This document shows positions 14,545-62,602 of a DNA stretch of 64,000 nt, piece by piece. The stretch's first letter is position 1. Every line of letters starts with the position of its first letter. The position numbers and the translations under genes are program-made. The notes under the pieces were generated by a model. It did not search any database and was not told the origin of the DNA. It saw nothing but the letters and a program-made list of their open reading frames with translations. Source of the DNA: Thermoguttaceae bacterium (GTDB lineage: Bacteria; Planctomycetota; Planctomycetia; Pirellulales; Thermoguttaceae). Location of the stretch: assembly GCA_050943135.1 (NCBI GenBank), contig JBMNOP010000003.1:166191-230190 (forward strand). Reading direction: 5' to 3'.

Positions 14545-17500
14545 ATGCTCAAGCTCGAAGAGATCACGAAAGGAATCCAAATCGCGGGGCTGGTTCCCGG
14601 AGAATTGGTAAATGTCGTCAGCGCGGACTCTTTCGGCGAGTCGTTGAAAATCACCTACAGCCTGGCCTCGGGAGGTGTTTCCGAGACCCTTCTGAACCGG
14701 TCCGACGAAGAACGGCTTTCGAAGGCGGAAATGGGGCTGGCGTGGTCGTTTGATTCCGACCCCGGGGATTTTCGTCGGGCGTTGGAGGCGTTCCGTATCC
14801 GGCTCGGTTTTCTCTTCGATCGGATGACGGCCATCCACTCGTCGCTGGTCGAACCTCTTCCGCACCAGATCTCTGCCGTGTACGATCGGATGTTAAAGCA
14901 AAACCCGCTGCGTTTCGTCCTTGCCGACGATCCCGGGGCGGGGAAAACGATCATGGCGGGTCTCCTGATCAAGGAACTCCTGATCCGCTCCGACACCCAG
15001 CGGATCCTGATCCTCGTGCCCGGCGCCCTGGTCGACCAGTGGCAGGAAGAGATGTTAAGGAAGTTCGGCATCCGTTTCGAAACTTTTATTTCCCAGGGGA
15101 ACGGGGCCGGAAACTTTTTTAACGAGCAGAACCTGGTGATCCTCAGGCTCGACCAATTCGCGCGCAACGAGGAACTCAAATCGGCCCTTGAAGATTCCAC
15201 CTGGGACCTGGTCGTTGCCGACGAGACCCACCGCCTTTCCGCCCACCGGTTTTCCTCCAGTACAACCAAGAAGACCAAACGGTACAAGTTGGCGGAACTC
15301 CTCGCCCGGAACAGTCGCCATTTTCTGATGATGACGGCGACCCCGCACAGCGGAAATAACGCGGATTTTCATCTCTGGTTGTCCCTCCTGGACCCCGACC
15401 GCTTCTACCTGGGAAGCAGTCCCGACGAGCCGGCCGTCCCCGAGGTTTCCGACGTGATGCGCCGCATGGTCAAAGAAGATCTTCGGAAATTCGACGGAAG
15501 CCCCCTGTTCCCGGAGCGGCGGGCCGAAACAATTCTTTTCCCCCTTTCCGAGAAAGAGCGCGATCTTTACGGGCAGGTTACCGAATACGTTCGTTCCGAG
15601 ATGAACCGCGCCGAGCGACTTCAGAAGCAAGAGCGGAACAACCTCGGGTTCGCCCTGACCATCTTGCAGCGCCGGTTGGCGTCGAGCCCGCAGGCCATCT
15701 ACGAATCGTTGCAGCGACGCCGCCGATTCCTCGAAAAGGATTTGCAAAACCGTCGGGAACATCCGGAAAAATACCCGAGGAGGGAACCCGAAACAGCGCC
15801 CTCCTCCGACTTGCGCGCGGTACGGGTACCCTTCGATCTTTTCGCCTACGACACGGAAAAAGAGGACGACGACTTCTACGACCCGGACGACGAACAAAAC
15901 GCCGACTACGTCGTCGCCGAGCGATCGATCGACGAGGTCGAAAAGGAGATCGAGACCGTCGACCTCCTGGTAGCTCAGGCCAAAAAGGTTGTCGATTCCG
16001 ATGAAGACTGCAAATGGAACGAACTTTCCAAAACGTTGCAAAAACCGCAGTTCGTCGGACCGGACGGCAAGCGGCTGAAACTGATCATCTTCACCGAATA
16101 CCGCGACACCCTCGACTACCTCGAACGAAAGATCAAAAACCTGTTGGGGGTTCCCGAGGCCGTCCTCGTGATTCATGGGGGAATAAAATTAACGGAACGA
16201 AACGAGATTCAAGAGAATTTTCGTAACGATCCCGATGTTTCGATCCTGATCGCCACCGATGCCGCGGGGGAAGGAGTCAATCTCCAGCGGGCCCACCTGA
16301 TGATCAACTACGATATCCCGTGGAACCCGAACCGGCTCGAACAGCGGTTCGGCCGCATCCATCGGATCGGGCAGACCGAACGCTGCTTTATGTGGAACAT
16401 GGTTGCCGAAGGAACCCGGGAAGGAGAAGTCTTTCGTCGCCTCTTCTTAAAACTCGAGGCCGCGCGCGAAAAGTTGGGCGGGCGTGTTTTCGATATCCTG
16501 GGAAAGGTTTTCGACAAAGGGAAACTCAACCAACTGCTGATTCAGGCGATCATGCAAAAAGAGAGCCCCGAAGACCAAAACAAGATCAACAAAGAGATCG
16601 ACGGGACGCTCGATCCTGCCCATCTCAACCGGGTGATTCGGGAAAACGCGCTCGTGCAACAAGCCTTTACCCCCGAGACACTCTATTCGGTCAAAGCCGA
16701 AATGGATAAAGCCGAGGCCCGCAAACTTCAGCCCTGTTACGTCCGAAATTTTTTTACCGAAGCGTTTCAACGTTATGGCGGAGAGATTCGCCGGCGGGAA
16801 GAAGGACGGTACGAACTTCCGTTTATCCCCCCGGCCATACGAAACAACCAAAAGACGTTAAAAAAGATCGGCGGTGCCATCGCCAAAAAGTATGACCGAA
16901 TCTGTTTCGAGAAAGAAAAGATTCGGGTGGCCAAGTCCGGAAGACAGGCCGAGTATCTCCATCCGGGACACCCGCTGGTCCGTTCCCTTACCGACCTGAT
17001 CCTGGAAAACCACTCGGCCCTCCTGAAACCGGGCACGGTCATGTTCGATCCGAGCGACGACGGTACGGAACCTTCCCTGATCTTCATGATCGACCATTCG
17101 GTTACCGAAACCCTCGGCGGAAACGAGGTTTCCCGTCGATTGCAATTCGTTCGGATCCGGCCCGACGGAAGTGTCGAGAACGCCGGCTGGGCCCCCCACC
17201 TCGACCTGGAGCCCCCGTCCGACGAGGTTCTGAAGATTGCCGAAGAGGTCAAGAAGGAGTCGTGGCTGAACCGGGACATCGAAAAGCTCGCGCTCGACTA
17301 CGCGATTCCGAACCTCTGCACCGATCATTTTCAAGAGGTCCGGCAAGAGCGTCGGCGCCATGTCGACAAGACGCTCCGGGCCGTGAAAGAAAGATTGACC
17401 CAGGCCATCAAAGGACTGGAACGCCGAATTCTTGTGGCTCGCGACGAGGTGAAAAGGGACGTTCAAATCAAGGTCAACCTGCAAAACCTCGAAAAAACGT

Positions 17501-18069
17501 TCGCCGAGCTCAGGAATCGCCTCGAAACCCGCGAAAAAGAGCTTGAACAGATGCGTTCCCTCTCGAACAAGCCCCCGGTCGTGATGGGGGGGATCCTTCT
17601 GATCCCGAAAGGCCTGTTGGACAAGAAACGGGGGATTCCGGCCAACACGGCCGATGCCGAAGCGCGCAAAGCCGTCGAGGCGATCGCGATGAACCTGGTC
17701 ATGGAAACCGAGAGATCGTTCGGCCACACGGTGATCGACGTTTCCGCCGAGAAATGCGGTTGGGACATCACCGCCAGGCCGACCGCGAAAAACCCGGACG
17801 GGTCCGCGAAAGAGGATCGCCACATCGAGGTCAAAGGACGCCGCAAAGATGCTCCGACGATACTGTTCACGCACAACGAGGTCGTTTACGCGATGAATCA
17901 GCAAGATAAGTTCATTTTGGCGATCGTTCTTGTCGACGGAGATAAAGTCGAAGGCCCCTTCTATCTCCGTTGTCCGTTCAGCCGGGAACCCGATTTCGGC
18001 GTCGCGAGCGAAAACCGTTACCTCGACATCCTTCTGGATATGGCGGTCGCCCCGGAAGAGACCCTGTAA
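14545..18069 (+). CDS. SNF2/DEAH-family superfamily-2 helicase (1174 aa) with a C-terminal DUF3883-like PD-(D/E)xK nuclease-like module
   Basis: PHQ motif; motif I DDPGAGKTIMAG; motif II VVADETHRL; motif III MMTATP; motif VI QRFGRIHRIGQ. The C-terminal 120 aa contain GWDI...HIEVKGRR (D...ExK), typical of the DUF3883/restriction-endonuclease-like fold. Confidence 0.85.
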   Translation: MLKLEEITKGIQIAGLVPGELVNVVSADSFGESLKITYSLASGGVSETLLNRSDEERLSKAEMGLAWSFDSDPGDFRRALEAFRIRLGFLFDRMTAIHSSLVEPLPHQISAVYDRMLKQNPLRFVLADDPGAGKTIMAGLLIKELLIRSDTQRILILVPGALVDQWQEEMLRKFGIRFETFISQGNGAGNFFNEQNLVILRLDQFARNEELKSALEDSTWDLVVADETHRLSAHRFSSSTTKKTKRYKLAELLARNSRHFLMMTATPHSGNNADFHLWLSLLDPDRFYLGSSPDEPAVPEVSDVMRRMVKEDLRKFDGSPLFPERRAETILFPLSEKERDLYGQVTEYVRSEMNRAERLQKQERNNLGFALTILQRRLASSPQAIYESLQRRRRFLEKDLQNRREHPEKYPRREPETAPSSDLRAVRVPFDLFAYDTEKEDDDFYDPDDEQNADYVVAERSIDEVEKEIETVDLLVAQAKKVVDSDEDCKWNELSKTLQKPQFVGPDGKRLKLIIFTEYRDTLDYLERKIKNLLGVPEAVLVIHGGIKLTERNEIQENFRNDPDVSILIATDAAGEGVNLQRAHLMINYDIPWNPNRLEQRFGRIHRIGQTERCFMWNMVAEGTREGEVFRRLFLKLEAAREKLGGRVFDILGKVFDKGKLNQLLIQAIMQKESPEDQNKINKEIDGTLDPAHLNRVIRENALVQQAFTPETLYSVKAEMDKAEARKLQPCYVRNFFTEAFQRYGGEIRRREEGRYELPFIPPAIRNNQKTLKKIGGAIAKKYDRICFEKEKIRVAKSGRQAEYLHPGHPLVRSLTDLILENHSALLKPGTVMFDPSDDGTEPSLIFMIDHSVTETLGGNEVSRRLQFVRIRPDGSVENAGWAPHLDLEPPSDEVLKIAEEVKKESWLNRDIEKLALDYAIPNLCTDHFQEVRQERRRHVDKTLRAVKERLTQAIKGLERRILVARDEVKRDVQIKVNLQNLEKTFAELRNRLETREKELEQMRSLSNKPPVVMGGILLIPKGLLDKKRGIPANTADAEARKAVEAIAMNLVMETERSFGHTVIDVSAEKCGWDITARPTAKNPDGSAKEDRHIEVKGRRKDAPTILFTHNEVVYAMNQQDKFILAIVLVDGDKVEGPFYLRCPFSREPDFGVASENRYLDILLDMAVAPEETL

Positions 18070-18091
18070 AAACCGAGTGTTGAAAACAAAA

Positions 18092-20998
18092 ATGGCAAAG
18101 ATCAAAGCCCCCAAAAAACTGATTGAAGTGGCGTTGCCGCTCGACGAGATCAACGCCGAGGCCGCGCGCGAGAAATCGATCCGGCACGGGCACCCGTCGA
18201 CCCTCCACCTTTGGTGGGCACGCCGCCCGCTTGCCGCCGCCCGGGCCGTTCTTTTTGCGCAACTGGTCAACGACCCCGGGGGGACCCGGGGCTGGAAAGC
18301 GGGGCTGACCAAAGAAGACGCGAAAAAGAAACGCGACGAACTCTTCGAGATCATCCGCGACCTGGTCGTTTGGGAAAACGTGAATAACGAAGCGGTCCTC
18401 GATCGGGCCCGGGAAGCGATTCGCGAAAGTTGGCGCGAGACCTGCGCCCTGAACCAGGGCAGGCCGGGGTTCGACCCCGAAACCCTTCCCGCGTTCCATG
18501 ACCCGTTCGCCGGCGGCGGGGCGATCCCGCTCGAAGCGCAGCGGCTCGGCCTGGAAAGTCATGCCAGCGACCTGAACCCGGTTGCGGTCTTGATCAACAA
18601 GGCGATGATCGAAATCCCTCCCAGGTTTTTCGACTCGCCGCCGGTCGGGCCGGTGCCGCGGGGGGATACGGAAAAAGGGAAAGAGGCCTTTTCCGGAACC
18701 GCCGGGCTTGCCGAAGATGTCCGCCGTTACGGACTCTGGATCATGGAAGAGGCGAAAAAGCGGATCGGCGGCCTCTACCCCGACGTCGAAATCACCGAGA
18801 CGATGGCGAAAGGACGCCCCGACCTGGAACCGTACGTCGGTCAAAAGCTCACCGTGATCGCCTGGCTCTGGGCGAGGACGGTAAAAAGCCCGCACCCCGA
18901 CTTCGGTCATGTCGATGTGCCCCTTATTTCCAGTTTTGTGCTCTGTTCCAAAAAAGGGAAAGAGGTCTACCTGGAACCGGTGATCGAAGGCGATACGTAC
19001 CGGTTTGAGGTAAAAGTCGGGACACCGCCAAAAGGCGCGAAAAATGGAACAAAACTCGGTCGCGGCGCGAATTTCCGATGCCTGATGAGCGGTGTGCCGA
19101 TCGAACCGGGACACATCTACAGCGAGGCTCAATCAGGGAATATGGGTGAACGTCTCTTAGCCATTGTCGTGGAAGGTGACAAGCAACGGGTTTATCTTTC
19201 CCCATTACCCACTCATGAATTCAACAATCTAAACATTGAGCCGCCATGGAAGCCAAGGGTGGAAATGCCAAAAAATCCACGCTGGTTTTCACCGCCGGGT
19301 TACGGTCTGAAAACTTACGGAGACCTCTTCACCCCGCGCCAACTTACGGCCCTCAACACCTTTTCCGACCTGGTCCAAGAAGTCAGGGAAAAGACGATCG
19401 AGGATGCCAAGCATGCCGGAATGCCCGACGACGGAATCCGACTTGCCGAAGGAGGACGCGGCGCCACCGCCTACGGCGATGCCATTGCCGTTTACTTGGC
19501 GTTCGTGATCGACAAGCTCACGGATTATGGTTCGACAATATGTAGCTGGCATTCAAGTCGTGAAATAATCAGAAATACATTTGGTCGACAGGCGATCCCC
19601 ATGACGTGGGACTATGCCGAGGGGAACTTTTATTCCGACTCAACCGGGAGCTTTACAAGTATGCTTGACTGGGTTGTAAAGACCATAGCGCTACTCCCGG
19701 CAAAGCCCCCCTCTTATGCTCATCAAGCCGACGCGCAGACACAGGCGATCTCCCAGGAAAAGATCGTCTCCACCGATCCGCCCTACTACGACAACATCGG
19801 CTACGCCGACCTTTCCGACTTTTTCTATATTTGGCTGCGCTGCAACTTAAAAGGAGTCTATCCCGACCTCTTCGCCACGTTGGCCGCCCCGAAATCCGAG
19901 GAACTTGTTGCCACGCCGTATAGGCACGGGGGGAAAGAAAATGCCGAGAAGTTCTTCCTCGACGGGATGACGCTGGCGATGCAGAACCTGGCCCAACGGG
20001 CGCACCCGGCCTTTCCGGTAACGATTTACTACGCCTTTAAGGCGTCCGATACCAACGGCGACGGGACGAGCAACACCGGTTGGGCAACCTTTTTGGAGGC
20101 TATCCTCAAAGCCGGATTCTCCATCACCGGAACCTGGCCGCTTCGTACGGAACTTTCGAACCGAATGATCGGTATGGGGACCAACGCGCTGGCCTCTTCG
20201 ATCCTCTTGGTTTGCCGGAAGCGCGAACGCGCGCGCGAAGAGATCAGCCGCCGTGAATTCCTGACCGAACTCCGCGAAACGATGCCGACCGCTCTCCGCG
20301 AGATGATCGGCGAGGGGAGCGCCCGATCGATCGCTCCCGTCGACCTGGCCCAGGCGGCGATCGGACCGGGCATGGAAATCTTCTCGAAGTATCGCGCCGT
20401 CTTGAAGGCCGACGGGGCCGCGATGACGGTTCGCGAGGCGCTGATAGAAATCAATCGGAACATTTCCGACTACCTCGACCCGGAAGGGAGCGGGTTCGAC
20501 GCGCCGACCCTCTTTTGTAACGAATGGTTCAAACAAAACCGGTGGGAAGCGGGGGAATTCGGCGTTGCCGACACGCTGGCACGCGCCAAGGGGACGAGCG
20601 TCCCCTTCGTCAAAGAGGCGGGGATCATTCAGGCCGATCGCGGAAAGGTCAGGCTCCTCCCCTGGGAGGAATATCCCGACGATTACGACCCCTCGCGCGA
20701 TAAGAACCGCCCGATTTGGGAGTCGTGCCATCACCTGATCCGCGTCTTGCGCCGGCAGGGAGAGGTTGCCGCGGGGCGGCTCCTTGCGCAAATGCCCGAG
20801 ACGATCGACGGCATCCGGCAACTGGCCTACTTTCTCTACCTCCTTTGTGAACGGAAGGGGGACGCCGAAAACGCCCGATCTTACAACGAGCTGATCACCG
20901 GTTGGCACGGGGTGATGGCGGCGTTTATCAAAGCGTCGGAAGAACTGAAGCGTCCCGTGAAGCGGGAAGACCAAGAAACATTGAATTTCGGAGATTGA
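18092..20998 (+). CDS. DUF1156-family N6-adenine DNA methyltransferase (968 aa)
   Basis: ATG at 18092 lies 22 nt after the helicase stop. The hallmark N-terminus is [57 protein letters not shown] is motif I-like (AdoMet-binding) and [12 protein letters not shown] is motif IV (DPPY). Confidence 0.8.
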
Positions 20999-21002
20999 TC
21001 GC

Positions 21003-23870
21003 ATGAAACCGTGGAGAGAGATTGCCCAGCCGCACCGGGACGTTCTCGAAGGGAGAATGAAACAGGCCGATTTCGCCGTCGACATTTCGGCGGTGGCCCG
21101 GGGAAACGCCTCGCCGGAATATCAGGACGCCAAAGAGTTCTTTTCGCGAACGTATATCACCGAGGGGTTGCGTCATCTGCTGATTTCGGTGGTCCGCCGC
21201 CTGAACCGTCTCGACGGAGATCCGGTGATCCAATTGCAGACCAATTTCGGCGGGGGAAAGACGCACACCCTTCTGGCGGTTTACCATCTGGCGACAAGCG
21301 GGATGCCGACCTCGGAACTCGAAGGGATCCCCGAAGTCCTCGACCAGGCGGGAATCGACACGCTCCCGAAGGCGAAAGTCGCGGTCATCGACGGGACCCG
21401 CCTTTCTCCGAACCAGCCGTCCAACGTCGGGAAACTCGAAATCCGGACGATCTGGGGAGAACTCGCTTACCAGTTGCTCGGGTCGGAAGGGTATCGACTC
21501 CTTGAGGCGAGCGACCGGTCGGGAACCGCCCCCGGGAAAGAGGTGGTGGCCGAAATTCTCCGACTGGCCGCCCCTTGCGTGATCCTGCTCGACGAGGCGG
21601 TCGCGTTCTTTCGTCAACTCAACCAACCGAACCTTACGGCCGGAAGTTATGAAGCGAACATCTCCTTCGTTCAGGTTCTCACCGAAAGCGTGAAAGCCGT
21701 CCCCGACGCGGTCCTTCTGGCCTCGATCCCCGAATCGGAATCGGAGGCCGGGGGATTGTTCGGTCGGACCGTCCTCAACACCCTCGAAAAGATTTTCGCG
21801 CGGCTCGAAAATGTCTGGAAACCGGTCGGCGCCGACGAATCGTTTGAAATCGTTCGCCGCCGTCTTTTTAAGAGCGCGGGAGCCCCTTCGGAAATCGACG
21901 CGGTCTGCCGCGAGTTTGAACATTATTACCGGCAGCATAAAGAATTGTTCCCCCCCGAAGTGCAGGAATCCCTCTATTTCGAACGGCTTCGGAGCGCGTA
22001 TCCGATTCATCCGGAATTTTTCGACCGGCTCTATTACGATTGGTCGACCCTCGATAATTTCCAGCGCACGCGCGGGATGTTGCAACAGATGGCGATGATC
22101 ATCCGGCACCTCTGGAACAGCGAGAGTCGCGGCGCGATGATCATGCCGGGTTCCCTTCCGCTCAACGACACGAACGTGCGGATCAAGAGTACGCAGTATC
22201 TCTCCCCCGGCTGGGATCAGGTGATCGAGTCGGAAATCGACGGGTCGAAGTCGAAACCGAAAAAGATCGACGGGACGGAAGCCCGGTTCGGATCGATTTC
22301 GGCAGCCGTTCGAACCACGCGAACGATCTTTCTCGGTACCGCCCCCTCGACCCCCGCCCAAGAGAACCGCGGGATCGATTTCGGTCGGATCCTGCTCGGT
22401 TGTGCCGAGCCGGGGCAGGAACCTTCGCTCTACTGGGATGTCTTAAAAAGGTTGCACGATACGCTCCATTACCTCTACGTCGACAAAAAGCGTTATTGGT
22501 TCGATACGCGGCCGAACCTGCGCCGGGAAATGGAATCCCGAAAAACGAAATTTGCCGCCGATTTTAAGCGGCTGCGCGAGACGATCCACGATCTCCTGCG
22601 GGAGTTGATCGGAAGCCAATCCGATTTCGCAGGCGTTCATCTTTTCGCCCCGAACGAGGATATCCCGGACACGATCGACCGGGGACTCCGTTTGGTCTTC
22701 ACGGAACCGGAAAGAAAAAACGCCTATTCCGCCGAAAACCGCGACAACACCTACGCGCGGATCCTCGACATTTTGGAATATCGCGGAACGACCCCGCGGA
22801 TCCGTCGGAACCGCCTCGTCTTCGTGGTTCCCGACATGCCCGGCATCGACAACCTGAACGACCAGTGCGCCACCTACCTGGCCTGGAACGAAATCGTCGA
22901 GGACGGGAGTACCGGCCGTCTGAACATGGACACCCAGCGTCTGAACCTGGCAAAGGAGCAAAGGAAGACCGCCGCCGAGATCTTTCGTCGCGCCGTTCCG
23001 GAATGTTACCATTCTCTCTTGGTTCCTTTCCAAGATCCCGGCCGAAAAGTCGATTTCGATTACCATCGTCTTTCCTACGGCACCGAAAAGATGACCCGGG
23101 TGATTTGGAATTCGTTGAAAGAAAACGAGTTGGTCATCGACCGATGGTCGGAAATCCATCTTAAAAACATCCTGGAAAAGAGTTACCTGAAAGAGGGCGT
23201 GTCCGACGTTTCCGTCAAGCGGGTCTGGGAAGATACCTGCAACTACCTCTCGATGCCCCGCCTGAACGACGAGTCGGTTTTTTGCGAAGCGGTCGCCGAA
23301 GGTGTTGCGAAGGGGCTTTTCGGTTACGCGTCGGGAAAAGAGGGGGAAACGTATATCGGTTTTGAATTCCGTAGGAATCCGAGCCGAATCCTCCTCGACG
23401 GAGACTCGCTCCTGATCGGGCAAGAGGCGGCCGAGGATTATCAAAAAGGACTCGACGCGGCGGCAAGCCGGGCCGTTTCGGACCCGGACCGGAGCGCTTG
23501 GGGCGGTACCGAAGAAACCACCTCTCCGGCGTCGCTCTCCCCTTCCCTTTCGGCGGGCGGCTCGGGGTCGGAATCGCAGGAGCTTCCCGACACGTCGGAA
23601 AGTTCCGCGGAAGGTGAAAATCTTTTCTTCGTCTCGATTGAACTGGACCCCGAAAAATCGGGACTCGGGGTCGATATCAGTGACATCATCGAAGCGACCG
23701 CGTCGGTATTCGTTGGAAAGCCGGGGGTGAACGTGAAGATCAGACTCGATATCGAGGCCGAGGCGAAGACCGCGTTCGACGCCGGAACGGTGAGGGCGGT
23801 TAAGGAAAATTGCCGGCAACTCGCTTCCGACAAAAACCTCGAGATCCAACCGAATTTCGACACCAAATGA
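21003..23870 (+). CDS. DUF499-family P-loop ATPase (955 aa)
   Basis: ATG lies 4 nt after the methyltransferase stop. P-loop-like [18 protein letters not shown] and Walker-B-like [12 protein letters not shown] are present. The protein is large, with an acidic Ser/Gly-rich linker near the C-terminus. Confidence 0.75.
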
Positions 23871-25436: not shown

Positions 25437-25578
25437 GGTTTCTCGGAAAGGTTTCGTTTAAAAGAGCCATTTTAAGGGAAAAAGTCGTTTTTGGCAAGAA
25501 TTCGTTCCAAAACCGGGGAATCTTATCTAAAAAACAGAAAAAAAGCTTGATTTTTTTTATTTTATCTATATTTTTTAT

Positions 25579-25606
25579 TTGACATCGTAGAAGCATGGGC
25601 TATATT
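25579..25606 (+). promoter_or_regulatory. Sigma70-like promoter (TTGACA-N16-TATATT) within a 300-nt AT-rich island upstream of csrA
   Basis: Read directly. The surrounding 25437-25700 is the most AT-rich stretch in the window. Confidence 0.4.
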
Positions 25607-25741
25607 ATTAAACTAGATACTATGGCTAAAATATGTAATTTGGCTAGAATGTTGCCGTTTGCCATAGATTGCAATTAGGATATCGCGTGCCCGTCGGTAG
25701 GAGAGGCACGGCCATGAAGCGTTTTGAGGAAGGATGTCGCC

Positions 25742-29701: not shown

Positions 29702-30071
29702 TGTTCCTTCCTTGTTCGAACAGAGGACGTTGTCGGCACAAATCGAATGATTGACGACCTTTGCTTTCAAGTCCAATTCCCTCGTATCCTGAAATTCCTA
29801 AACCTAAATTTTCTACTCCCTTAATCTTCTATATCGGAGCAGATCGCCGGAATATTTGATAAAACCGTTAAATTTCTCTTAATTTTTCGTTTTTATCAAT
29901 CCGTTAAAGTTTAACATTTCGGGGAAAAGGGATTAAAACAACGATCCGGAGGAAGAAAAAGAGTAGCGCGGTCGCGCCCGGGTGGCCGGAGAGCGCAAAA
30001 AGGAACGCCGTTTTAAGTCGGGAAGGAAAAAATGGCTCTCTCTTTCGAAAAACAAGGGGGTATCGAGCCGG

Positions 30072-30815: not shown

Positions 30816-31138
30816 TCTTCTCTCCGTTCAGTAAAGCGAAAGCCGTGTTCTTAACGATGTTTTACAAAATCCTTGTTACACAAACCAGATCAGCGCCAGC
30901 ACAGTACTTCCTAATTAAACCGAAATCAGAACAAGAATCAAGAATCCAAAACAAAAAATTCTTTTTTTTCTTGAACCGAAGCGAAAAGAAGTTAAAATAA
31001 ACAGAATAAATAACAAAAGTCAAATAGGGTGTGTCGGAAATCCTTTGTGCCGGGGAAATCATGCCGGCCCCATGACCGTTATTCCGGAAACGCCGGCTCT
31101 GCCGTCGTTTGCAAATTCAAGATCGAGAGGGGTCACAG

Positions 31139-41900: not shown

Positions 41901-42290
41901 AAGGTTTCCGTCCTGGTCTTTGATTCGGACTTTCCAGAAGACGTGCGTATCGGAACGGAGTGGCTTCCCTTCGTAGGGGATTTGAATCGACCGATCCGAA
42001 GCGACCCAGCCGGAATCCCAAAGGTCGGCTGCCTCGCCGTCAAGGGTGGCACGGTCGGAAGCGACCAGAATTCGATAAGCGGTCTGCTCGTAGCCGTATC
42101 CTCCGTCATTGGCGTCATTCTTCCAAGCCAGCCGGGGATTTTGTGTCTCGACGCCGATCGGGTTCGAGAGCATCTCGACGGTCAACCCGTCGGGGAAAAG
42201 GGAGGCCCCGTCGGCGCGGCCGACAGGCGAAAAACCGAGGCAAAAGGCGGAAAGGAGAAAAAGGAAAACATAGTTTCGAAGGCGGAACAT
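38934..42290 (-). CDS. Alpha-L-rhamnosidase (GH78), 1118 aa, secreted
   Basis: Signal peptide MFRLRNYVFLFLLSAFCLGFSPVGRA. LSNPIGVETQNPRLAWK...YRILVA is the characteristic GH78 N-terminal block. The size and downstream aromatic-rich catalytic (alpha/alpha)6 region are consistent with GH78. Confidence 0.7.
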   Translation of the reverse strand: MFRLRNYVFLFLLSAFCLGFSPVGRADGASLFPDGLTVEMLSNPIGVETQNPRLAWKNDANDGGYGYEQTAYRILVASDRATLDGEAADLWDSGWVASDRSIQIPYEGKPLRSDTHVFWKVRIKDQDGNLSPWSRPASWTTGIMTPSDWQGKWIAQPERLRRPTPLDGVFWIGRRDCATPLVRKEFDLDVTQADLDAKKYTALLHYAGNKTFEIHLNGKTATHSFGMVFNPDLLRVADVTELLRPGKNLLAAKMRTDDGTEPAILLKLEIRELVPIDRVTPGRGIPGQTVLELKSDASWKLLSEPNDGWDQLEESEISLPQAAELWSPDAAPWGKLRRFADGISPAFQKTFRTANDKKVTRATLYISGLGFYEASLDGQKISGRLLDPSMTRYDRRVLYSAYDLTDRLTEEGGPHVLDVLLGHGWYDVRSTATWNFDAAHWRGSPRLLAQLNINYDDGTSEVIASDETWDTVTSPLIYDCIRQGEIVDGGFCQEKLGQAERIDPPGGLLTSSLFPGTVIVDEFPAVSVQPTKEPETWIVDLGRNIAGWCRVEFRGLEKGKVVRLRYSERLKEGRIERNDLALHFLEGSPAYFAGEAGGFQTDFYIAGGNPVEVFEPRFTYHGFQYLEVKGLSSAPNPEDFTACVVANGFPENGAFTTSNRLINDIQAATLSSYRANFVDGYPTDCPHREKNGWTGDAQLACEQAMYNWKNSAAYEKWVRDLCDEQRPDGNLPGIVPTGGWGYAWGNGPSWDSALILVPWHLFVYRGDRRILETSYDAMKLYVDYLTTREDADRLVSHGLGDWCPYRKMPSVQVTTSSYYYVDAKITAETAKMLGKTEDAEKYAALADRIRADYCRVLIDGATGQCDDGSLTAQSCPIHQGLVDALPEKEQKAVFDRLLDRLHAVDAHFDCGIFGAKYILRTLSEGGRTDLALRMVLQETSPCYADWIRRGAGTLWEDWGEGSSRNHVMFGDVSAWFYQYLAGIRLDGAPYPSAGGVPSAPGFRRSTLAPDCRVSDLAVPGKEPLRSVDAHLDTPYGRIASRWDRDPQTEELTFEAVVPYNTRAKIFVPYDEGEEVLADHKIPESIRLAAEKVTDRGKPALLYEVGGGTYRFTVRKAAR

Positions 42291-47079: not shown

Positions 47080-47335
47080 GTTGAGACCTGTCCGAACGCA
47101 GAACCATCTTAATGGGAACAAATCTTTTTGTCCAGAGTACATCACGGTTTTGGGCAAGTTCGGGAAAACCGCTCTCGCAAGATCGAGAAGAACTTGTATT
47201 TTACCCAAAATACCATAAAATTTCCCCCAACACTTCCGAAAACCCTTGGAATTCGATTCGTAAAAGGGTATAAATAGAGGGGGCTGGGGGTCGTTAACCC
47301 GGTATTTTTACTCCATACCTACATGAGGGATTGTG

Positions 47336-48655
47336 ATGAAAAAACAATTTTCACGTCGTGACTTTCTGAAATCGAGCGCCCTGAGTGCTACCGCCGCTTC
47401 GGTTTTGATGAGTGCCGGCCGCGTTCACGCCGCGGAAAACAACACTTTGAAGGTCGGGTTGATCGGCTGTGGCGGACGTGGTCGCGGTGCATTGGTCAAC
47501 ACGCTTGAAGCCGACCCGAATACCGAATTGGTTGCCGTCGGCGACGCGTTCCGTGAAAACGCCGAAGGTGCGATCGAAGGTTTCGTCGAAGAGTTCGGTG
47601 ACCGTATCAATGTCACCCCCGATCGAATCTTTGACGGGTTGGATTGCTTCAAGCAAGTCATTCCGGAATGCGACGTGGTCCTCCTCTGCGAGACCCCGGG
47701 ATTCCGTCCACGGTCGCTCCGTCTCGCCGTCGAATCCGGTAAACATGTCTTCTGTGAAAAACCGGTCGCTGTCGATGCCCCCGGTATCCGTAGCGTGTTC
47801 GAGTCGACGGAAATCGCCAAAAAGAATGGTACCACCCTCGTCTCCGGTCTCTGCTGGCGTTATCATCCGAAGGTTCGCGAGATGGTTCAGCGCGTCAAAG
47901 ACGGTGAAATCGGCGATGTGATCAGCGGTCGTCTCCTCTACCTGGTCGGTCAGCTCTGGACCCGTCCTCGCCGCAAAGGTGACACCGAAATGAAATACCA
48001 GGTTCGTGACTGGTATAACTTCTGCTGGCTCTCCGGCGATTTCAATATCGAGCAGCAGGTTCATACCCTCGACAAGGCCCTCTGGGTGATGGACAATGTG
48101 GCCCCCGACCACTACTTCGGGATCGGCGCGCGTATGCAGCGTATTCAGCAACCGGCCAACGGCGATATCTACGATGCGATGGCTTCCTGCCTCGAATACG
48201 ATAACGGCGTATCATTCTACTCCTACTGCCGTCAGCAAAACAACTGCTGGTCGAAGAACGACGCGATCATTGCCGGGACGAAGGGAACGGCTCACCTTCT
48301 CTCCGGCCTGATTCTCGATTACAAAGGGAACGTGGTCTATCGCTATGACGACAGCGCCTACGCCGACATGTACCTCATCGAACATCAGGAGATGTACAAA
48401 TCGATTCGTGGCGGCGCCACGATCAACAACGGCGACATCATGGCCAAGGCGACGATGATGGGGATCGCAACACGCATGGCTTGCTATACCGGCAGACGTC
48501 TTTCGTACGACGAGGCGCTCAACGACAACGAAACGATGGATCCGACCGGTTACACCTGGGACGACAGCCCGTGGAATCTGCCCGATGCCGAAGGCCGTTA
48601 CCTGATTCCGGTTCCGGGTGAAGGTCGTCAGATTCACCACATCGTCCGTGGCTGA
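47336..48655 (+). CDS. Tat-signal Gfo/Idh/MocA-family NAD(P)-dependent oxidoreductase
   Basis: SRRDFLKSSALSATAASV is a Tat motif. VGLIGCGGRGRG is the Rossmann fingerprint. The protein has the typical family length. Confidence 0.75.
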   Translation: MKKQFSRRDFLKSSALSATAASVLMSAGRVHAAENNTLKVGLIGCGGRGRGALVNTLEADPNTELVAVGDAFRENAEGAIEGFVEEFGDRINVTPDRIFDGLDCFKQVIPECDVVLLCETPGFRPRSLRLAVESGKHVFCEKPVAVDAPGIRSVFESTEIAKKNGTTLVSGLCWRYHPKVREMVQRVKDGEIGDVISGRLLYLVGQLWTRPRRKGDTEMKYQVRDWYNFCWLSGDFNIEQQVHTLDKALWVMDNVAPDHYFGIGARMQRIQQPANGDIYDAMASCLEYDNGVSFYSYCRQQNNCWSKNDAIIAGTKGTAHLLSGLILDYKGNVVYRYDDSAYADMYLIEHQEMYKSIRGGATINNGDIMAKATMMGIATRMACYTGRRLSYDEALNDNETMDPTGYTWDDSPWNLPDAEGRYLIPVPGEGRQIHHIVRG

Positions 48656-55353: not shown

Positions 55354-56400
55354 ATGGAAATCAGATCGGTCATCATCATCGGAAGCGGACCTGCAGGCTG
55401 GACCGCGGGAATCTATGCCGCTCGCGCAGGACTCGCTCCCCTTCTCTTCGAAGGAGAAGCAACCGCCGAAAATACCGAGGCGGGCCGGGCACCAATGGGC
55501 CAGCTCTCCACGACCAACGAAGTCGAGAATTACCCTGGTTTCCCCCGCGGAAATTGGGAGCCTTCCCTGACCGCAGCGCTCAATCCGGACCGTTTGTCTA
55601 TCCTTCCGCCGATTCGTCCCGGGGCGGTTACCGGACCGGCGCTTGTCGAACTGATGAGAGAACAGGCTATTGCTCAGGGCCTCGAAATCAGGGATACCGA
55701 TATTGTTGCCGTTGATTTTTCCACACGCCCCTTCCCTCTGACCGATTCGACCGGTCGAAGTTACCACGCCCAAAGCGTGATTGTGGCCACAGGCGCCTCG
55801 GCCAAACGCCTGGGCCTGCCGTCGGAGGCGCGCTTCAAGAACAGGGGCGTCAGTACCTGCGCCGTCTGTGACGGTCCTCTTCCCCGATTTCGCAATAAAC
55901 CGATCGCCGTGGTTGGCGGGGGGGATTCCGCGGTCGAAGAGGCTCTTTACCTTTCCCGATTCGGTTCCGTCATCTACCTGATCCACCGCCGGAACGAATT
56001 TCGCGCCTCAAGGGTCATGATGTTACGCGCCGAATCGGAACCGAAAATTCAGATTCTCCGCAATCGCGTTGTACAAGAGGTTCTCGGAACGGACCAGCAA
56101 GGGGTGACGGGGGTCGTTCTGGCGAGTACCGCGGGCGAACCGGACCTAACACTCGAAATTTCAGGGCTTTTTCCGGCCATCGGACACACACCCAACGTTT
56201 CGTTCCTCAAAAGACAGTTGAGATTGACGTCGGCCGGTTTTATCGAACGTCCGATTCCGTTTCAAACCGCGACGAGCGTTCCCGGTGTTTTCGCCGCCGG
56301 CGATGTTGCCGATGCGCGTTATCGCCAGGCAATAACCGCCGCGGCGGGCGGTTGCATGGCCGCGCTCGATGCCGAAAGATTTCTGCAAACCCCCCGATAA
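55354..56400 (+). CDS. trxB: Thioredoxin reductase (TrxB-like) with a 25-aa insertion and CAVC redox motif
   Basis: GSGPAGWTAGIYAARAG is the FAD site. CAVCDG is the redox-active disulfide (canonical CATCDG). VVGGGDSAVEEALYLS is the NADPH site. The C-terminus aligns with E. coli TrxB (…GVFAAGDV…YRQAIT…GCMAALDAERFL). Confidence 0.85.
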   Translation: MEIRSVIIIGSGPAGWTAGIYAARAGLAPLLFEGEATAENTEAGRAPMGQLSTTNEVENYPGFPRGNWEPSLTAALNPDRLSILPPIRPGAVTGPALVELMREQAIAQGLEIRDTDIVAVDFSTRPFPLTDSTGRSYHAQSVIVATGASAKRLGLPSEARFKNRGVSTCAVCDGPLPRFRNKPIAVVGGGDSAVEEALYLSRFGSVIYLIHRRNEFRASRVMMLRAESEPKIQILRNRVVQEVLGTDQQGVTGVVLASTAGEPDLTLEISGLFPAIGHTPNVSFLKRQLRLTSAGFIERPIPFQTATSVPGVFAAGDVADARYRQAITAAAGGCMAALDAERFLQTPR

Positions 56401-56912
56401 ACAACATTCCTTTCGATGGGGTTTTCCCGGGAAACTTTCACGACATGTGTTACTGATCGTTCACGAAAGCCATCCAAAACCCGGAGACCGACGGGAATAA
56501 CGCGTACATTTTGCACTTTCACGACATCTTCTCGTCGTTTGTCCGGTTAATTTGGACAAAAGCAAGTTTTTCCTCCACCTATGGTAGTATTATATCAAAA
56601 GTTTTTAATGGATTTTTAAGTTTTTCTTCAAAACAAGGTGTTAGACCCTTTCCATATCGCACCGGCTGTGATAAAATTGGGTAGCGGCGTTGTGGACGGC
56701 GCCTATCTTTCCCCGCCCCGTCGAAAGGGCACCACGAAGAGAGGCACGACAACCCCGCAACCTAAAATGACTTCGTCGATTCCGCATCGGTTATTCACCT
56801 TGGAGTTCAAGAGGGAGGGTCGTTTGTCGACTTCTCCTTGAAATATCGCGGAGAGGGCGGTCTCCTTTCGTACTGAACCGCCGGTCCAAAACATTTTTTA
56901 CGGAAACGAATC

Positions 56913-58130
56913 ATGCCCGAAAAGGCCAAACTTCCCTCCGACAATCCTTCGCAAGTCGAGCAACAACCTCGCCGCAGGGGGCGTCCCCGAAAGACACCTT
57001 TGGTTGTCGCCGAAACCGCCCCGCGAAAACGTGGTCGTCCACGCAAACCGGTTGATCCGAACGTCCCGCCCCGGGTGCCGAAACGTCGCGGTCGTCCCCG
57101 GAAGCCCGATGCCAAATATCCCACCGTCGCCGACATGAAATCGTTTCGGCGCAAGTGGTCGATGATCGATATGCTGGTTCACCCCGATCAAGACCATCCC
57201 GATGGCTACACAGTCGATGAAATGGCCGAGCTTTTCGATGTTACCTCGCGAACCATCCGCCGCGATCTGAAAATCCTCGACGACATTTTCGGCGGGCTTG
57301 ATGTCAAACGCGTTCGCTGGGGCCTTAAGCGCTACTATCTCGAACGGATCCCTTTCGGAGAAGGCGGTACCGCCATCACGCGTGAAGAGCTTGTTGCGCT
57401 CTGTATTGCCCGTCTGTTGATGCGTCCTTTCCGTGGAACACCATTGGCCACTGCCATCGATTCCGGTTTTCAAAAGCTTCTCAGCTGCCTTTCCAAAGAA
57501 AGTGTCGATTACGCCGAGAAAGTCAGTTCGTTTTTTCTGCAGTTTTCCTATAACGCCGACCTCACCGAAAACCAGGCCGAGATCCTCACCACACTCTTTA
57601 GCGCGATGGAGAAACGCGAAGTGGTCAAATTCACCTACTTCTCGGTCAACTCGCGCGAAGTCAAAGTGTACGAGGTCCATCCCTACAGCTTTATCTACGA
57701 TAAAGGGTTCATCTATCTGCTCGGTTACAACTGCAAAAAAGACAGGTTCCAACACTGGAAGTTGAACCGGTTTAAAAAAGCCGAATCCCTCAACGTCCCA
57801 TTCCAGGAAGACCACCACTTCGACCTTGAAAGTTATTCCGACAAAGCCATCAACATGTTCCTTCGCGACGACGATCCGGTACGTGTCCGCGTTATCTTTT
57901 CGAGCCGGTGCGCCCTCGACGTCAAGGAACAGGGGCTGGCCGTCATCAAAAAGAAGCGTTTCCGAAAAGACGGCTCCTTAGAGGTTGAAATGATGGTTGA
58001 CCCGTCCCCCGCCTTCGTTAACTGGATCCTCTCCTTTGGAGATAACGCAAAGGTCATGTCACCGCGAAGTGTCCGTACGCAGGTCCTGGAAGAAGCCAAC
58101 AAGCTTGCGGCCCGTTACCGCCTCGGCTGA
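56913..58130 (+). CDS. WYL-domain transcriptional regulator with three N-terminal AT-hook motifs and an HTH
   Basis: Three AT-hooks (RRRGRPRKT, RKRGRPRKP, KRRGRPRKP). HTH YTVDEMAELFDVTSRTIRRDLKIL. WYL-domain core ...VHPYSFIYDKGFIYLLGYN.... C-terminal WCTD-like region. Confidence 0.75.
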   Translation: MPEKAKLPSDNPSQVEQQPRRRGRPRKTPLVVAETAPRKRGRPRKPVDPNVPPRVPKRRGRPRKPDAKYPTVADMKSFRRKWSMIDMLVHPDQDHPDGYTVDEMAELFDVTSRTIRRDLKILDDIFGGLDVKRVRWGLKRYYLERIPFGEGGTAITREELVALCIARLLMRPFRGTPLATAIDSGFQKLLSCLSKESVDYAEKVSSFFLQFSYNADLTENQAEILTTLFSAMEKREVVKFTYFSVNSREVKVYEVHPYSFIYDKGFIYLLGYNCKKDRFQHWKLNRFKKAESLNVPFQEDHHFDLESYSDKAINMFLRDDDPVRVRVIFSSRCALDVKEQGLAVIKKKRFRKDGSLEVEMMVDPSPAFVNWILSFGDNAKVMSPRSVRTQVLEEANKLAARYRLG

Positions 58131-58160: not shown

Positions 58161-58193
58161 CGGGGGGAGTCATCCCCCCGTTTTTTATTTTTT
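58161..58193 (+). terminator. Rho-independent terminator after the WYL regulator gene
   Basis: CGGGGGGA-GTCA-TCCCCCCG followed by TTTTTTATTTTTT. Confidence 0.7.
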
Positions 58194-58328: not shown

Positions 58329-58357
58329 TTGAAACGGAAAAACAGATCCCTTATAAT
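58329..58357 (+). promoter_or_regulatory. Near-consensus sigma70 promoter TTGAAA-N17-TATAAT upstream of the second Gfo/Idh/MocA gene
   Basis: Read directly; the -10 ends 70 nt before ATG 58428. Confidence 0.5.
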
Positions 58358-58427
58358 CTTCGTCGTGACTATGGTTCTCAGGAACCTCCCCTCCATAATC
58401 CATTCATCAAAGACCAAGGGAATAATT

Positions 58428-59639
58428 ATGAAACAACCAGGTCAAGTGACTCGCCGTCACTTCATCAAAACAGCGGCAGCTTGCACCATTCCGCTCTTCG
58501 TCGCCGGGCGTGTTCTCGGCAGAGACGGTTTCTACTCGCCGAGTGATACCATCAATGTCGGGCTGATCGGTTACGGGGTTCGCCGCAGCGAAGTCGGGTA
58601 TCGTCCCGGTTCCCGCTTTGTCGCATTCTGCGATATCGATACCCGGCGTCTGCCGCGTGAAGAGTTCCCCGAAGCAAAAATGTTCCAATACTACGAAGAA
58701 ATGCTTCAGTTGCCCGAACTCGACGTTGTCTCGATCGCCGCCCCCGACCACTGGCATACCAGGATGACGATCGACTCGTGCAAGGCCGGTAAAGACGTCT
58801 TCTGCGAAAAACCTCTGACCTTCACCCTGATGGAAAGCCGCCAGATCGTTGCCGCGGCACGGAAATACAATCGCGTCGTTTCGAGCGGCTCGCAGCGTGT
58901 GATGGAAGATTACGGGCACATCCTTGCGCCGATTGTCATGTCGGGCGCGATCGGCGAAGTGAAAGAAATCTACGCGGGCTGTGCCGGTCCCCCTTCGGAA
59001 CGCACCTATGATCCGGAACCGTGTCCCCCCGAACTCGACTGGGATTGCTGGGTCGGACAGGCTCCCTGGTTCCCCTACAGCAAACGGGCCATCCAGCCGA
59101 TGACATGGCGTTTCAACTCCGATTTCGGTACCGGCGGACTCGGTGACTGGGGCGGGCACAATTTCGGCGGTGCGCTCTATTCCTGTGGGATGGACCATAT
59201 CGCCCCGAAGAAGATCTACCCCCCGGAATCCGAAAACAATCCACATCCGGGCGTTCGAATCGAAATGGAAAACGGGATCAACTTCTACCACAATTGTCCG
59301 GAAGGTTGCCCCATCAAAATCGTCGGAACCGAGGGAACCTACCTCTTCGGCCGAAGTACCGAATTCCGCCCGCTCAAAGCGGTCGATGTCCGCCGGTACA
59401 GCGGCGGCGCGACCCGCATCGACGACGATTTCCTCTACTGCGTTCGAAACCGTCTTCGTCCGTTCCAAGATGTCTTCTACGGTGCCAATGTTTCCGATTA
59501 CGGTCATATGTGCATCATCTCCTACAAACTCCGCCGTGAGCTTGAATGGGACAAAGAAAAGATGGAATTCGTCGGCGACCGTGAAGCGACCGCAATGGTC
59601 AGCCGGGTTCAGCGCGCTCCCTATCAGATCGAAGTCTGA
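58428..59639 (+). CDS. Tat-signal Gfo/Idh/MocA-family oxidoreductase
   Basis: MKQPGQVTRRHFIKTAAACTIPLFVAG is a Tat signal. INVGLIGYG is the Rossmann motif. EKP...C is the family motif. Confidence 0.75.
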   Translation: MKQPGQVTRRHFIKTAAACTIPLFVAGRVLGRDGFYSPSDTINVGLIGYGVRRSEVGYRPGSRFVAFCDIDTRRLPREEFPEAKMFQYYEEMLQLPELDVVSIAAPDHWHTRMTIDSCKAGKDVFCEKPLTFTLMESRQIVAAARKYNRVVSSGSQRVMEDYGHILAPIVMSGAIGEVKEIYAGCAGPPSERTYDPEPCPPELDWDCWVGQAPWFPYSKRAIQPMTWRFNSDFGTGGLGDWGGHNFGGALYSCGMDHIAPKKIYPPESENNPHPGVRIEMENGINFYHNCPEGCPIKIVGTEGTYLFGRSTEFRPLKAVDVRRYSGGATRIDDDFLYCVRNRLRPFQDVFYGANVSDYGHMCIISYKLRRELEWDKEKMEFVGDREATAMVSRVQRAPYQIEV

Positions 59640-61456: not shown

Positions 61457-61528
61457 TTCCCCTTGGGTTTTTCTCGAAAACCGGAGCAAAACAGAACGGT
61501 TGTTTGTTTTGCTCCATACCATTTTGCG

Positions 61529-62602
61529 ATGAGTCGAACGATGAAGTTTTTCCGATTAATTTTCCTGCCGATCTTCCTCGGTTTCGTGTCGGTCTTTTCG
61601 ACCGCCGCCGAACCCCCGCAATATCGCGGCGCGATGATTTCGCCCGGCAACTTCCATGCCGCCGATCTTGAAGTCTTTGGCGGTCGGTGGAACGGCAACT
61701 TGGTACGCTGGCAACTCAACTGGGGCTTTCCTCACGGAAAAGCCGACACGGCCACGGCCGAAGAATATTTCGCATGGCTCGAAAACGAGTGCCGACGTCT
61801 TGACGCGATGCTTCCTCTTCTCAAAGAGTACGGGGTCAAGGTCTGTCTGGATGTTCATACGGCCCCGGGCGGATTCACCGAAAGAACAACCGTCCGCGCG
61901 CTGGAAGAGGAAGAATTTACCGACGCCTTCATCGAGACCTGGGTTCGCCTGGCCACACGCTACAAGGAAAATCCGGTCATCTGGGGCTACGACCTTTTGA
62001 ACGAACCGGTCGAAAGAACCCCGGAAGAGGGTGAATATTACATCAGTTGGCGCGATCTTGCCACGCGCGCGGCCCGTCGGATCCGAGAAATCGACCCGAC
62101 GACCCCGATCGTTTTCGAACCAGCCAACTGGGCCAGCCTCAGGGGTTTTGAAGGTCTCGAACCGCTCGATCTGCCGAACATCATCTACAGTCCCCATATG
62201 TATGTGCCGCACGCTTTCACTCATCAGGGGGTCTTTGCCAATACGGTTCCGGTAACCTATCCCGGGGAAATCGACGGGGCTTATTGGGGTAAGGAGGAAC
62301 TGCGCAAGTCGCTGGCACCCGTCCTTGAATTTCAGAAAAAATATGATGTCCCGATCTTCATCGGCGAGTTCAGCGCGATCCGATGGGCTCCCGGGAACGG
62401 GGCATACAATTATCTGAAAGATGTCATCGAAATCTTCGAGGAATACGGATGGGATTGGACCTATCATGCCTTCCGCGAATGGAGTGGTTGGAGTGTCGAG
62501 TATACCGACGACAGAAAAAACAACGAGCCGGCCCCTGAACCGACAAACCGCGAACTTCTTTTGAGAAGCTTTTTCGAAAGGAATTCCCGGAAGGTCGACT
62601 GA
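61529..62602 (+). CDS. Secreted glycoside hydrolase family 5-like (cellulase-family TIM barrel)
   Basis: Signal peptide MSRTMKFFRLIFLPIFLGFVSVFSTAA. NEP (acid/base) in ...LLNEPVE... and the IFIGEFSA nucleophile Glu block are spaced as in GH5. Confidence 0.65.
   Translation: MSRTMKFFRLIFLPIFLGFVSVFSTAAEPPQYRGAMISPGNFHAADLEVFGGRWNGNLVRWQLNWGFPHGKADTATAEEYFAWLENECRRLDAMLPLLKEYGVKVCLDVHTAPGGFTERTTVRALEEEEFTDAFIETWVRLATRYKENPVIWGYDLLNEPVERTPEEGEYYISWRDLATRAARRIREIDPTTPIVFEPANWASLRGFEGLEPLDLPNIIYSPHMYVPHAFTHQGVFANTVPVTYPGEIDGAYWGKEELRKSLAPVLEFQKKYDVPIFIGEFSAIRWAPGNGAYNYLKDVIEIFEEYGWDWTYHAFREWSGWSVEYTDDRKNNEPAPEPTNRELLLRSFFERNSRKVD

Follow-up and report, generated by a model that had tools for sequence, protein, structure and literature searches.

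Tails with HMGA-like AT-hooks recur on WYL transcription factors of a planctomycete family

Regulators in which a winged helix-turn-helix (wHTH) is followed by a WYL and a WCX domain include activators as well as repressors. DriD of Caulobacter crescentus is a homodimeric activator of an SOS-independent DNA-damage response with the domain order wHTH, three-helix bundle (3HB), WYL and WCX, and the promoters that depend on it have no consensus -35 element but a degenerate one, overlapped by a DriD box whose spacing to the -10 is fixed. PafBC and the WYL regulators of defence systems sense single-stranded DNA (ssDNA), and in another system cyclic di-GMP (c-di-GMP) is the WYL ligand. The genes encoding the defence repressors BrxR and CapW lie directly beside their targets. 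In bacteria, AT-hooks are considered uncommon: according to a December 2025 preprint, WhiB7 and CarD were the sole AT-hook proteins that had been identified in bacteria before SufR. Here we describe a gene of a Thermoguttaceae bacterium (assembly GCA_050943135.1, contig JBMNOP010000003.1, positions 166,191 to 230,190; this whole stretch of 64,000 nucleotides is referred to as the window) that encodes an AT-hook-wHTH-WYL-WCX regulator at 56913..58130 (+), as supported by the open reading frame (ORF), the Pfam domains and the matches to homologues. A WYL factor with an HMGA-like tail of multiple AT-hooks recurs within this one planctomycete family.

The ORF encodes 405 amino acids (aa) followed by a stop codon and opens at the first start codon past the upstream stop. 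Translation and Pfam matches agree with the coordinates and with the architecture (three AT-hooks, then an HTH, then WYL) that were given in an earlier note made from the letters of this DNA; the WCX domain had not been named there. The matches to the HTH_DeoR (25.8 bits versus a cutoff of 21, aa 100-123) and HTH_11 models together cover aa 97-125 and exceed the curated cutoffs, as do those to WYL (PF13280; 51.8 bits versus 21.8, E = 8e-14, aa 223-291) and WCX (PF25583; 51.2 bits versus 23.9, E = 2e-13, aa 322-399), and the generic WYL models of PADLOC match the protein at 1e-30. An AlphaFold2 (AF2) model of the monomer, made from an alignment of 17 sequences and thus shallow (mean predicted local distance difference test score, pLDDT, 75; predicted template modelling score, pTM, 0.37), places the wHTH at aa 72-142 (57126..57338) and predicts a linker of three helices (aa 157-169, 177-190 and 195-206; 57381..57530) at the position that is taken by the three-helix bundle in DriD according to Foldseek. 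It further shows the WYL beta-barrel, with strands at aa 236-296 (the domain as a whole spans 57579..57800), and the WCX domain at aa 322-403 (57876..58121; modelled from aa 323 onwards), all on the forward strand. All three domains are present, and the protein is a wHTH-WYL-WCX transcription factor of the YafY/DriD/PafBC/BrxR/CapW superfamily, most likely acting as a homodimer. A wrongly annotated start, with the hooks outside the translated part, was ruled out: an upstream extension is impossible and the hook amino acids are kept despite synonymous change. The same ATG is preceded by a GGAG/GGGAG Shine-Dalgarno sequence in four of the six aligned orthologue sequences.

The N-terminus contains QQPRRRGRPRKTPLVVAETAPRKRGRPRKPVDPNVPPRVPKRRGRPRKPDAKYPTVADMKSF, in which three GRP cores are set in Arg/Lys residues. 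Translation and alignment identify these as hook 1, RRRGRPRKT (aa 20-28, 56970..56996), hook 2, RKRGRPRKP (aa 38-46, 57024..57050), and hook 3, KRRGRPRKP (aa 57-65, 57081..57107), all three encoded on the forward strand. The three copies of [RK][RK]RGRPRK[TP] correspond to the definition of an AT-hook that is quoted in the December 2025 SufR preprint, i.e. a GRP core with Arg/Lys flanks. The first 70 residues are without secondary structure in the AF2 model and of low confidence (pLDDT <50 at residues 1-39 and 58-61, with means of ≤63 for the 10-residue blocks through residue 70), and the hook-bearing tail is predicted to be intrinsically disordered. The hooks are spaced 18-19 residues apart, as are those of HMGA. 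The Pfam model AT_hook (PF02178) recovers three stretches with 15.6 bits (E = 0.015), which is below its gathering score of 17.4. As that model is only 13 residues long, we take the low score to reflect a limit in sensitivity and not to be evidence against the motif; domain databases would nevertheless miss the hooks on account of it, which is why the relatives are annotated merely as 'WYL domain-containing transcriptional regulator' or as 'YafY'.

A six-frame scan for strongly basic [RK]GRP[RK] motifs in ORFs of at least 120 aa, covering 224 kb (the window and the loci L001-L015), found such motifs confined to the WYL genes with two exceptions: one in the window at 42197 (+, 164 aa) and one at L013 9247 (-, 159 aa), which runs antisense to the WYL gene of that locus. 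Both exceptions are short ORFs that share their DNA with a longer gene, and they look spurious. Judged from this comparison, the hooks are not a product of chance or composition, and the possibility that AT-hooks are a common feature of these proteomes found no support in the scan. The frame that lies antisense to each of the hooks reads RGRP as well (RGRPRRF, RGRPRFR and RGRPLRR, 56986-57097, -), because CGN-GGN-CGN-CCN is nearly self-complementary; it falls within a 306-aa ORF (56898-57818) that we judged spurious.

The protein database yielded seven clusters of orthologues at 59-64% identity, besides a single variant, P0001, that is 99% identical. All three hooks occur in P0002, P0003, P0004, P0005 and P0007, while P0006 and P0008 carry hooks 1 and 3 and miss hook 2 (which is thus present in 5/7 orthologues, alignment A1). 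Residues R21-R26 of hook 1 and R59-P62/K64 of hook 3 are invariant in all seven orthologues, with variable linkers between the hooks; the earlier note had held that a basic N-terminus that is not conserved would speak against its reading, and hooks 1 and 3 proved to be kept throughout. The hook codons differ synonymously among the loci (CGC/CGT/CGA/CGG/AGG, GGT/GGC/GGA/GGG and CCC/CCT/CCG/CCA). Invariant peptides combined with such codon turnover indicate purifying selection on the peptide, and we consider the hooks, on this pattern, to be under selection. A nearly invariant linker of eight residues, DAKYPTVADMKSF, joins hook 3 to the first helix of the wHTH, which suggests that hook 3 and the HTH are held in a fixed geometry, and the recognition region of the wHTH itself is strongly conserved in the orthologues. 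The 99%-identical strain (P0001; loci L010 and L011) carries a natural R22W exchange in hook 1 (PRRWGRPRKT), from which it follows that hook 1 tolerates the loss of the Arg that precedes the GRP core, in agreement with the R75M result for SufR.

We then looked at the distribution of the combination in an exhaustive search of 1.84 billion representative proteins, for which aa 66-405 were used as the query (the hooks were left out to avoid bias). The hook-free query had 5611 matches at E ≤ 1e-3, and canonical AT-hooks were found in five of the best 150 of these 5611: P0007, the representative of the orthologues, with its three N-terminal hooks, and P0029, P0043, P0064 and P0082, which have their hooks on a tail C-terminal to WCX. 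A profile search of the clade with C-terminal hooks recovered 31 clusters, about 24 of them with 1-3 GRP-core hooks flanked by basic residues; in this neighbouring clade the hooks are mostly C-terminal and in three cases (P0227, P0228 and P0229) N-terminal. A neighbour-joining tree of the core domains, which is rough and without bootstrap, parts the clade with N-terminal hooks from that with C-terminal hooks, with hookless proteins between them, and the hookless sister of the N-terminal clade, P0026, has a decayed 'RQKRGPAP' where hook 3 would be. Hooks at opposite termini, together with the hookless proteins between the clades, imply that the fusion of AT-hooks to WYL factors probably arose more than once, and the recurrence of one to three hooks in the neighbouring clade argues for repeated selection of the combination.

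The named relatives are all metagenome-assembled genomes (MAGs) of Thermoguttaceae (Planctomycetota). The orthologues are on contigs of metagenome assemblies with the labels XIEF21 and WILK20, taken here to be ruminant-gut studies. In a scan of contigs only one species representative, the planctomycete MAG RUG14216, had an orthologue; its prefix presumably marks a rumen-derived genome. The orthologue clade is narrow, given this one species representative. No description of an AT-hook and a WYL domain in one protein was found in the literature searched; with this, and with only five hook-bearing proteins among the best 150 representatives of the hook-free search, the fusion is indeed as unusual as the earlier note had supposed.

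Two further observations were made among the proteins and loci that were recovered. P0019, P0020, P0024 and P0025 are unrelated multi-hook proteins that share RGRPRKPVDPN(A/V)xP and a repeat period of 18-21 residues; some of the multi-hook proteins start with a NifU-like domain and have as many as 14 hooks, and the shared extended motif hints at a wider, unannotated 'extended AT-hook' type of repeat in microbial proteins. In the locus of the C-hook relative P0186 (L013, 8001-17479) the regulator gene is preceded by a gene with a DUF4055 (portal-like) domain and followed by four genes without a Pfam match and then by a gene for a 1588-aa helicase with DUF4011, AAA_11, AAA_12, MTES_1575 and DUF3320 domains. 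The context of P0186 may thus be mobile or defence-like, unlike that of the gene in the window.

The closest structural relatives of the modelled regulator are activators. A Foldseek search of the PDB returned the complex of DriD with ssDNA and operator as the best match (8tp8, E = 4e-18), followed by complexes of DriD with RNA polymerase (RNAP), the PafBC-RNAP complex 9fnd at 5e-17 and another PafBC match at 1e-13; CapW, BrxR and the Cas13d accessory protein WYL1 came far behind, at about 1e-8 to 1e-6. A HMMER sequence search of the PDB gave the same ranking, with DriD as the best match (E = 1e-7), and the full-length alignment with the DriD chains spans 333-343 columns. The model thus puts the regulator with the DriD/PafBC-like activators that have a helical linker and not with the BrxR/CapW defence repressors, which the earlier note had named alongside PafBC.

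The residues with which DriD contacts ssDNA (Y168, S172, R176, R178, Y192, K202, R204, W206, R207, Y240 and R288; PMC9186387) were mapped to the regulator through the HMMER alignment, at an identity of ~20%. Four of these 11 positions are identical (Y168=Y242, S172=S247, Y192=Y268 and W206=W282), four show conservative replacements (R176->K251, K202->R278, R207->K283 and Y240->F316) and the remaining three are changed (R178->Y253, R204->Q280 and R288->P366). The tyrosines Y242, Y253 and Y268 are kept without exception in 17 relatives that include both hook-bearing clades. The ligand pocket appears, from this alignment, to be clearly maintained, and ssDNA is a plausible ligand by analogy with DriD.

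The intergenic region 5' of the WYL gene is unusually long throughout the loci whose upstream regions were compared (window 56401-56912, L001, L004, L006-L009 and L014): it ranges from 512 to about 1400 nt and measures 1117 nt in the hookless sister. The alignment of seven lineages contains one sharply conserved block, TTTTTCAAGGAAAA - 6-8 nt - CTTTACCTCTTTTA - 17 nt - TGTTACAAT. The predicted promoter at 56649..56677 (+) lies in this block, which is kept in all seven orthologous lineages (CTTTACCTCTTTTA-N17-TACAAT), and consists of a weak -35 element, TTTCCA (56649-56654), and, after 17 nt, a TG-extended -10 element, TAAAAT (56672-56677). Upstream of it is an AT-rich stretch (56581-56640, 20-25% G+C) with two kinds of candidate elements. 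The palindrome GTTTTTCTTCAAAAC (56620..56634, +; about -64 to -50) corresponds, in the alignment with the orthologues and with the hookless locus L014, to TTTTTC-N3-GAAAAA, and could be either an operator or an UP-like element. Four A/T tracts (TATTATAT, TTTTTAAT, ATTTTTAA and TTTTT; 56588..56625), at a spacing of 9-14 bp and likewise of 20-25% G+C, are candidate docking sites for the AT-hooks. A direct repeat, AAGTTTTTC(C/T)TC, occurs at 56564-56575 and 56618-56629, i.e. 54 bp apart, and its second copy overlaps the palindrome.

The earlier note had spoken of an AT-rich leader of 512 nt; the AT-rich stretch is there, but the region is not all leader, as the promoter leaves a 5' untranslated region (5'UTR) of about 236 nt. 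Between the -10 and the ATG the seven lineages have 221-245 nt, a length that is held despite little conservation of the sequence. RNAalifold found no consensus pairs in the 5'UTR across the lineages, and 5'-proximal hairpins folded no better than shuffled sequence (z-scores of -1.4 to +1.1), so that a structured leader was rejected for lack of evidence; the whole window has no Rfam match at gathering thresholds, which leaves the long upstream region without a known RNA. The palindrome type GTTTT-N5-AAAAC was found twice in the window, where 0.15 copies were expected, and TTTTC-N3-GAAAA did not occur in the window. The second copy (61467-61481, GTTTTTCTCGAAAAC), which agrees with the palindrome of the WYL promoter at 13/15 positions, was put down to probable chance: it lies between the stop codon of a HEAT-protein gene and a conserved terminator and is absent from the orthologues.

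Downstream of the gene, an intrinsic terminator at 58161..58190 (+), formed by a G6/C6 hairpin (58161-58180) and a T-run, is found in the aligned orthologous loci and is degenerate in L007. The Gfo/Idh/MocA gene that follows has a conserved canonical promoter of its own (TTGAAA-17-TATAAT, 58329-58357). With a conserved terminator and a separate promoter between the two genes, co-transcription was ruled out and the WYL gene is monocistronic. The ORF called for the Gfo/Idh/MocA gene (58329..59639) opens with a TTG; since this codon falls inside the gene's own promoter, the ATG near 58428 (MKQPGQVTRRHF..., with a twin-arginine-like signal) is the probable real start.

The gene order is conserved between the window and nine related loci: carB(-) and a GDSL lipase gene (-), the long intergenic region, and then WYL(+), Gfo/Idh/MocA(+), a HEAT-protein gene (+), GH5(+) and MatE(-). 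The regulator is thus located among housekeeping and glycan-degradation genes. A thioredoxin-reductase-like gene (55354-56400) occurs between the GDSL lipase gene and WYL only in the lineage of the window (and in L010/L011), and is thus inserted in comparison with the remaining orthologous loci. Neither an adjacent WYL paralogue nor proteasome genes, nor a DriD-box-like sequence or DNA-damage genes, were found nearby, and no defence operon adjoins the regulator in the window or in the nine related loci; the gene is a stand-alone chromosomal one and not a cis-regulator of an adjacent defence operon. The HEAT-protein and GH5 genes are separated by a terminator hairpin, GGAGCAAAAC-loop-GTTTTGCTCC (61480-61530), that is strongly conserved in the window, L001, L004, L006 and L007. 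Given this hairpin, the TTG-start ORF at 61463-62602 begins too far upstream for the GH5 gene, which probably starts near 61541.

Taken together, we consider it on balance probable that the protein is a ligand-gated regulator of the DriD/PafBC type whose HMGA-like tail of three hooks provides a dual-module recognition of DNA. The wHTH would read a specific operator in the major groove while the hooks, hook 3 above all, would enter the minor groove of neighbouring A/T tracts; such dual-module recognition would raise the affinity and limit the regulator to promoters that are flanked by phased A/T tracts, and a nucleic-acid-like ligand in the WYL pocket, ssDNA by analogy, would switch its activity. 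The gene's own promoter offers one such combination of operator and A/T-tract site, for which reason the gene is probably autoregulated, and its layout, which recalls that of DriD-dependent promoters and of the WhiB7 promoter, makes autoregulation likely as well. The DNA targets, the ligand, the sign of regulation and the dimerisation are what we infer from comparison. Several points weigh against this reading. The AT_hook score of the tail is under the Pfam threshold, and the alignment behind the AF2 model is shallow, with 17 sequences and a pTM of 0.37. The changes R178->Y253, R204->Q280 and R288->P366 in the pocket mean that the ligand may not be ssDNA. The promoter block CTTTACCTCTTTTA (or its version in the window) and TTTTTCAAGGAAAA occurred only at the WYL genes' own promoters across the roughly 200 kb of related DNA that was scanned (the window and L001-L015), and no second copy that would define a regulon was found there. 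The hookless sister (P0026/P0178, L014) keeps the T5C-N3-GA5 palindrome, which makes the element hook-independent and possibly a plain UP element, a reading that follows the UP-element consensus.

Some of the same evidence can be read in other ways. A global nucleoid-associated or architectural regulator, binding AT-rich regions (horizontally acquired islands included) with the low specificity of HMGA or CarD, would fit the three canonical hooks at their HMGA-like spacing of 18-19 residues, the stand-alone gene that is conserved in the core genome, and the lack of a specific operator elsewhere in the window and L001-L015; the WYL domain would then release or remodel the binding upon a stress signal, as in a ligand-gated xenogeneic silencer. 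Discrete intergenic AT-rich islands do exist in the window (25451-25700, 29751-29950, 30851-31050 and 47151-47350), as the earlier note had it, and the context genes that it named there (csrA, the autotransporter and the GGDEF/flotillin divergon) were correctly identified; the genome, which it called GC-rich, has only 56.5% G+C. Yet AT-rich DNA between genes is what ordinary promoters consist of, the protein has kept a specific wHTH whose recognition region is strongly conserved, and the number of hooks varies from one to three with some close relatives hookless. We therefore regard this explanation as rather unlikely. The idea that the tail binds RNA or ssDNA, or serves as an electrostatic tether, a condensation module or a stability control, in place of reading duplex DNA, is the least likely of the rivals, with a very slight chance of being right. 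Extended AT-hooks can bind RNA, the tail is disordered, the family senses a ligand that is likewise a nucleic acid, and RGRPRKPVDPN is shared with the unrelated multi-hook proteins P0019, P0020 and P0025; but a GRP flanked by R/K is the defining minor-groove motif and acts as such in WhiB7 and SufR, hook 3 seems rigidly coupled to the DNA-binding wHTH, and phased A/T tracts are located at the gene's own promoter.

The remaining alternative builds on the link to defence and DNA-damage genes that was suggested in the earlier note: a BrxR/CapW-type regulator would repress a defence cassette or an uvrA-like gene and free them from repression on sensing ssDNA. The window does contain three large co-directional genes (14545-23870; an SNF2/ResIII helicase with NOV_C, DUF1156 and DUF499), followed by a TatD DNase on the opposite strand, that look like a restriction-modification or defence cassette, as well as an uvrA-like gene (5219-7741). 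WYL regulators of defence systems sense ssDNA, the PADLOC 'WYL' models match at 1e-30, and the relative P0186, of the clade with C-terminal hooks (clade B), is found near the DUF4011/AAA_11/AAA_12/MTES_1575 helicase gene. However, the regulator lies 33 kb from the cassette and 49 kb from the uvrA-like gene, whereas BrxR and CapW adjoin their targets; the gene is monocistronic and its neighbours in 9/9 orthologous loci are the carB, GDSL lipase, Gfo/Idh/MocA, HEAT-protein, GH5 and MatE genes; the promoter block is absent elsewhere in the window; and the fold is closer to DriD/PafBC. We hold such a repressor to be quite improbable and the proposed link to the cassette and the uvrA-like gene to be unsupported. 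The earlier note was thus sound on the architecture and its rarity, and overreached with respect to the targets.

What the finding adds is a subfamily, from gut/rumen Thermoguttaceae, that numbers some 30 protein clusters or more and in which canonical multi-copy AT-hooks occur at either end of a ligand-sensing WYL factor; the established picture of WYL regulators and AT-hooks is not overturned by it. If the hooks work as predicted, this would be a WYL regulator that combines sequence readout, minor-groove shape readout and ligand sensing, searches for operators by sequence motif alone would miss part of the recognition code, and there would be a handle on the gene regulation of planctomycetes, which to our knowledge is poorly studied. 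A bolder proposal is that the Thermoguttaceae evolved a family of ligand-gated, HMGA-like WYL regulators, with 1-3 AT-hooks on N- or C-terminal tails, that sit on AT-rich (promoter or foreign) DNA of a moderately GC-rich genome and are released or made activators by an ssDNA or nucleotide signal. This is distinctly unlikely in our estimation; if true, it would provide a signal-responsive counterpart of xenogeneic silencers and architectural factors, made from parts not previously seen together, and a genome-wide, ligand-gated and DNA-shape-based targeting of AT-rich DNA would raise the importance of the family.

In comparison with the described systems, the regulator shares the wHTH-WYL-WCX family, and the generic PADLOC WYL matches, with BrxR and CapW, but these are much weaker structural matches (about 1e-8) and have no AT-hooks, and no defence operon adjoins the gene described here. 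PafBC of the Actinobacteria is a WYL activator of similar fold that senses ssDNA. Its two paralogous HTH-WYL-WCX chains, encoded at the pup-proteasome locus and without AT-hooks, form a heterodimer or are fused, whereas the protein in the window is a single chain of 405 aa that does carry them. CarD of Myxococcus xanthus also joins an HMGA-like, basic multi-hook region to a bacterial transcription-factor domain. It has four hooks and its partner domain is CarD_TRCF. The hooks of CarD are C-terminal, come after an acidic stretch and are fused to that RNAP-binding domain, with no ligand sensor; no match to CarD_TRCF was obtained for the regulator in Pfam at E ≤ 1. The SufR-like COG2345 regulators recognise A/T-rich DNA with two modules, a wHTH and an AT-hook that occupies the minor groove, as seen by cryo-electron microscopy (cryo-EM; preprint), but the single hook is inside the wing of the wHTH and not on a tail, and an Fe-S sensor takes the place of WYL. 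WhiB7 of the Actinobacteria is, by analogy, the best functional precedent for the hooks: the AT-hook on a terminal tail of this activator contacts an AT-rich motif that immediately precedes the -35, at its own and at target promoters. It is not homologous and differs in its one C-terminal hook, its Fe-S WhiB fold, the lack of an HTH of its own and its binding to sigma region 4. DriD is without AT-hooks or an N-terminal tail, shows an identity of only about 20%, and has two ssDNA-contacting arginines that are replaced in the regulator. It is at the same time the top structural and sequence match, with the same order of domains including the three-helix linker and with most of the ssDNA-contact residues identical or conservatively replaced, and the regulator's own promoter resembles DriD promoters in its weak -35 and in a conserved box whose distance to the -10 is fixed.

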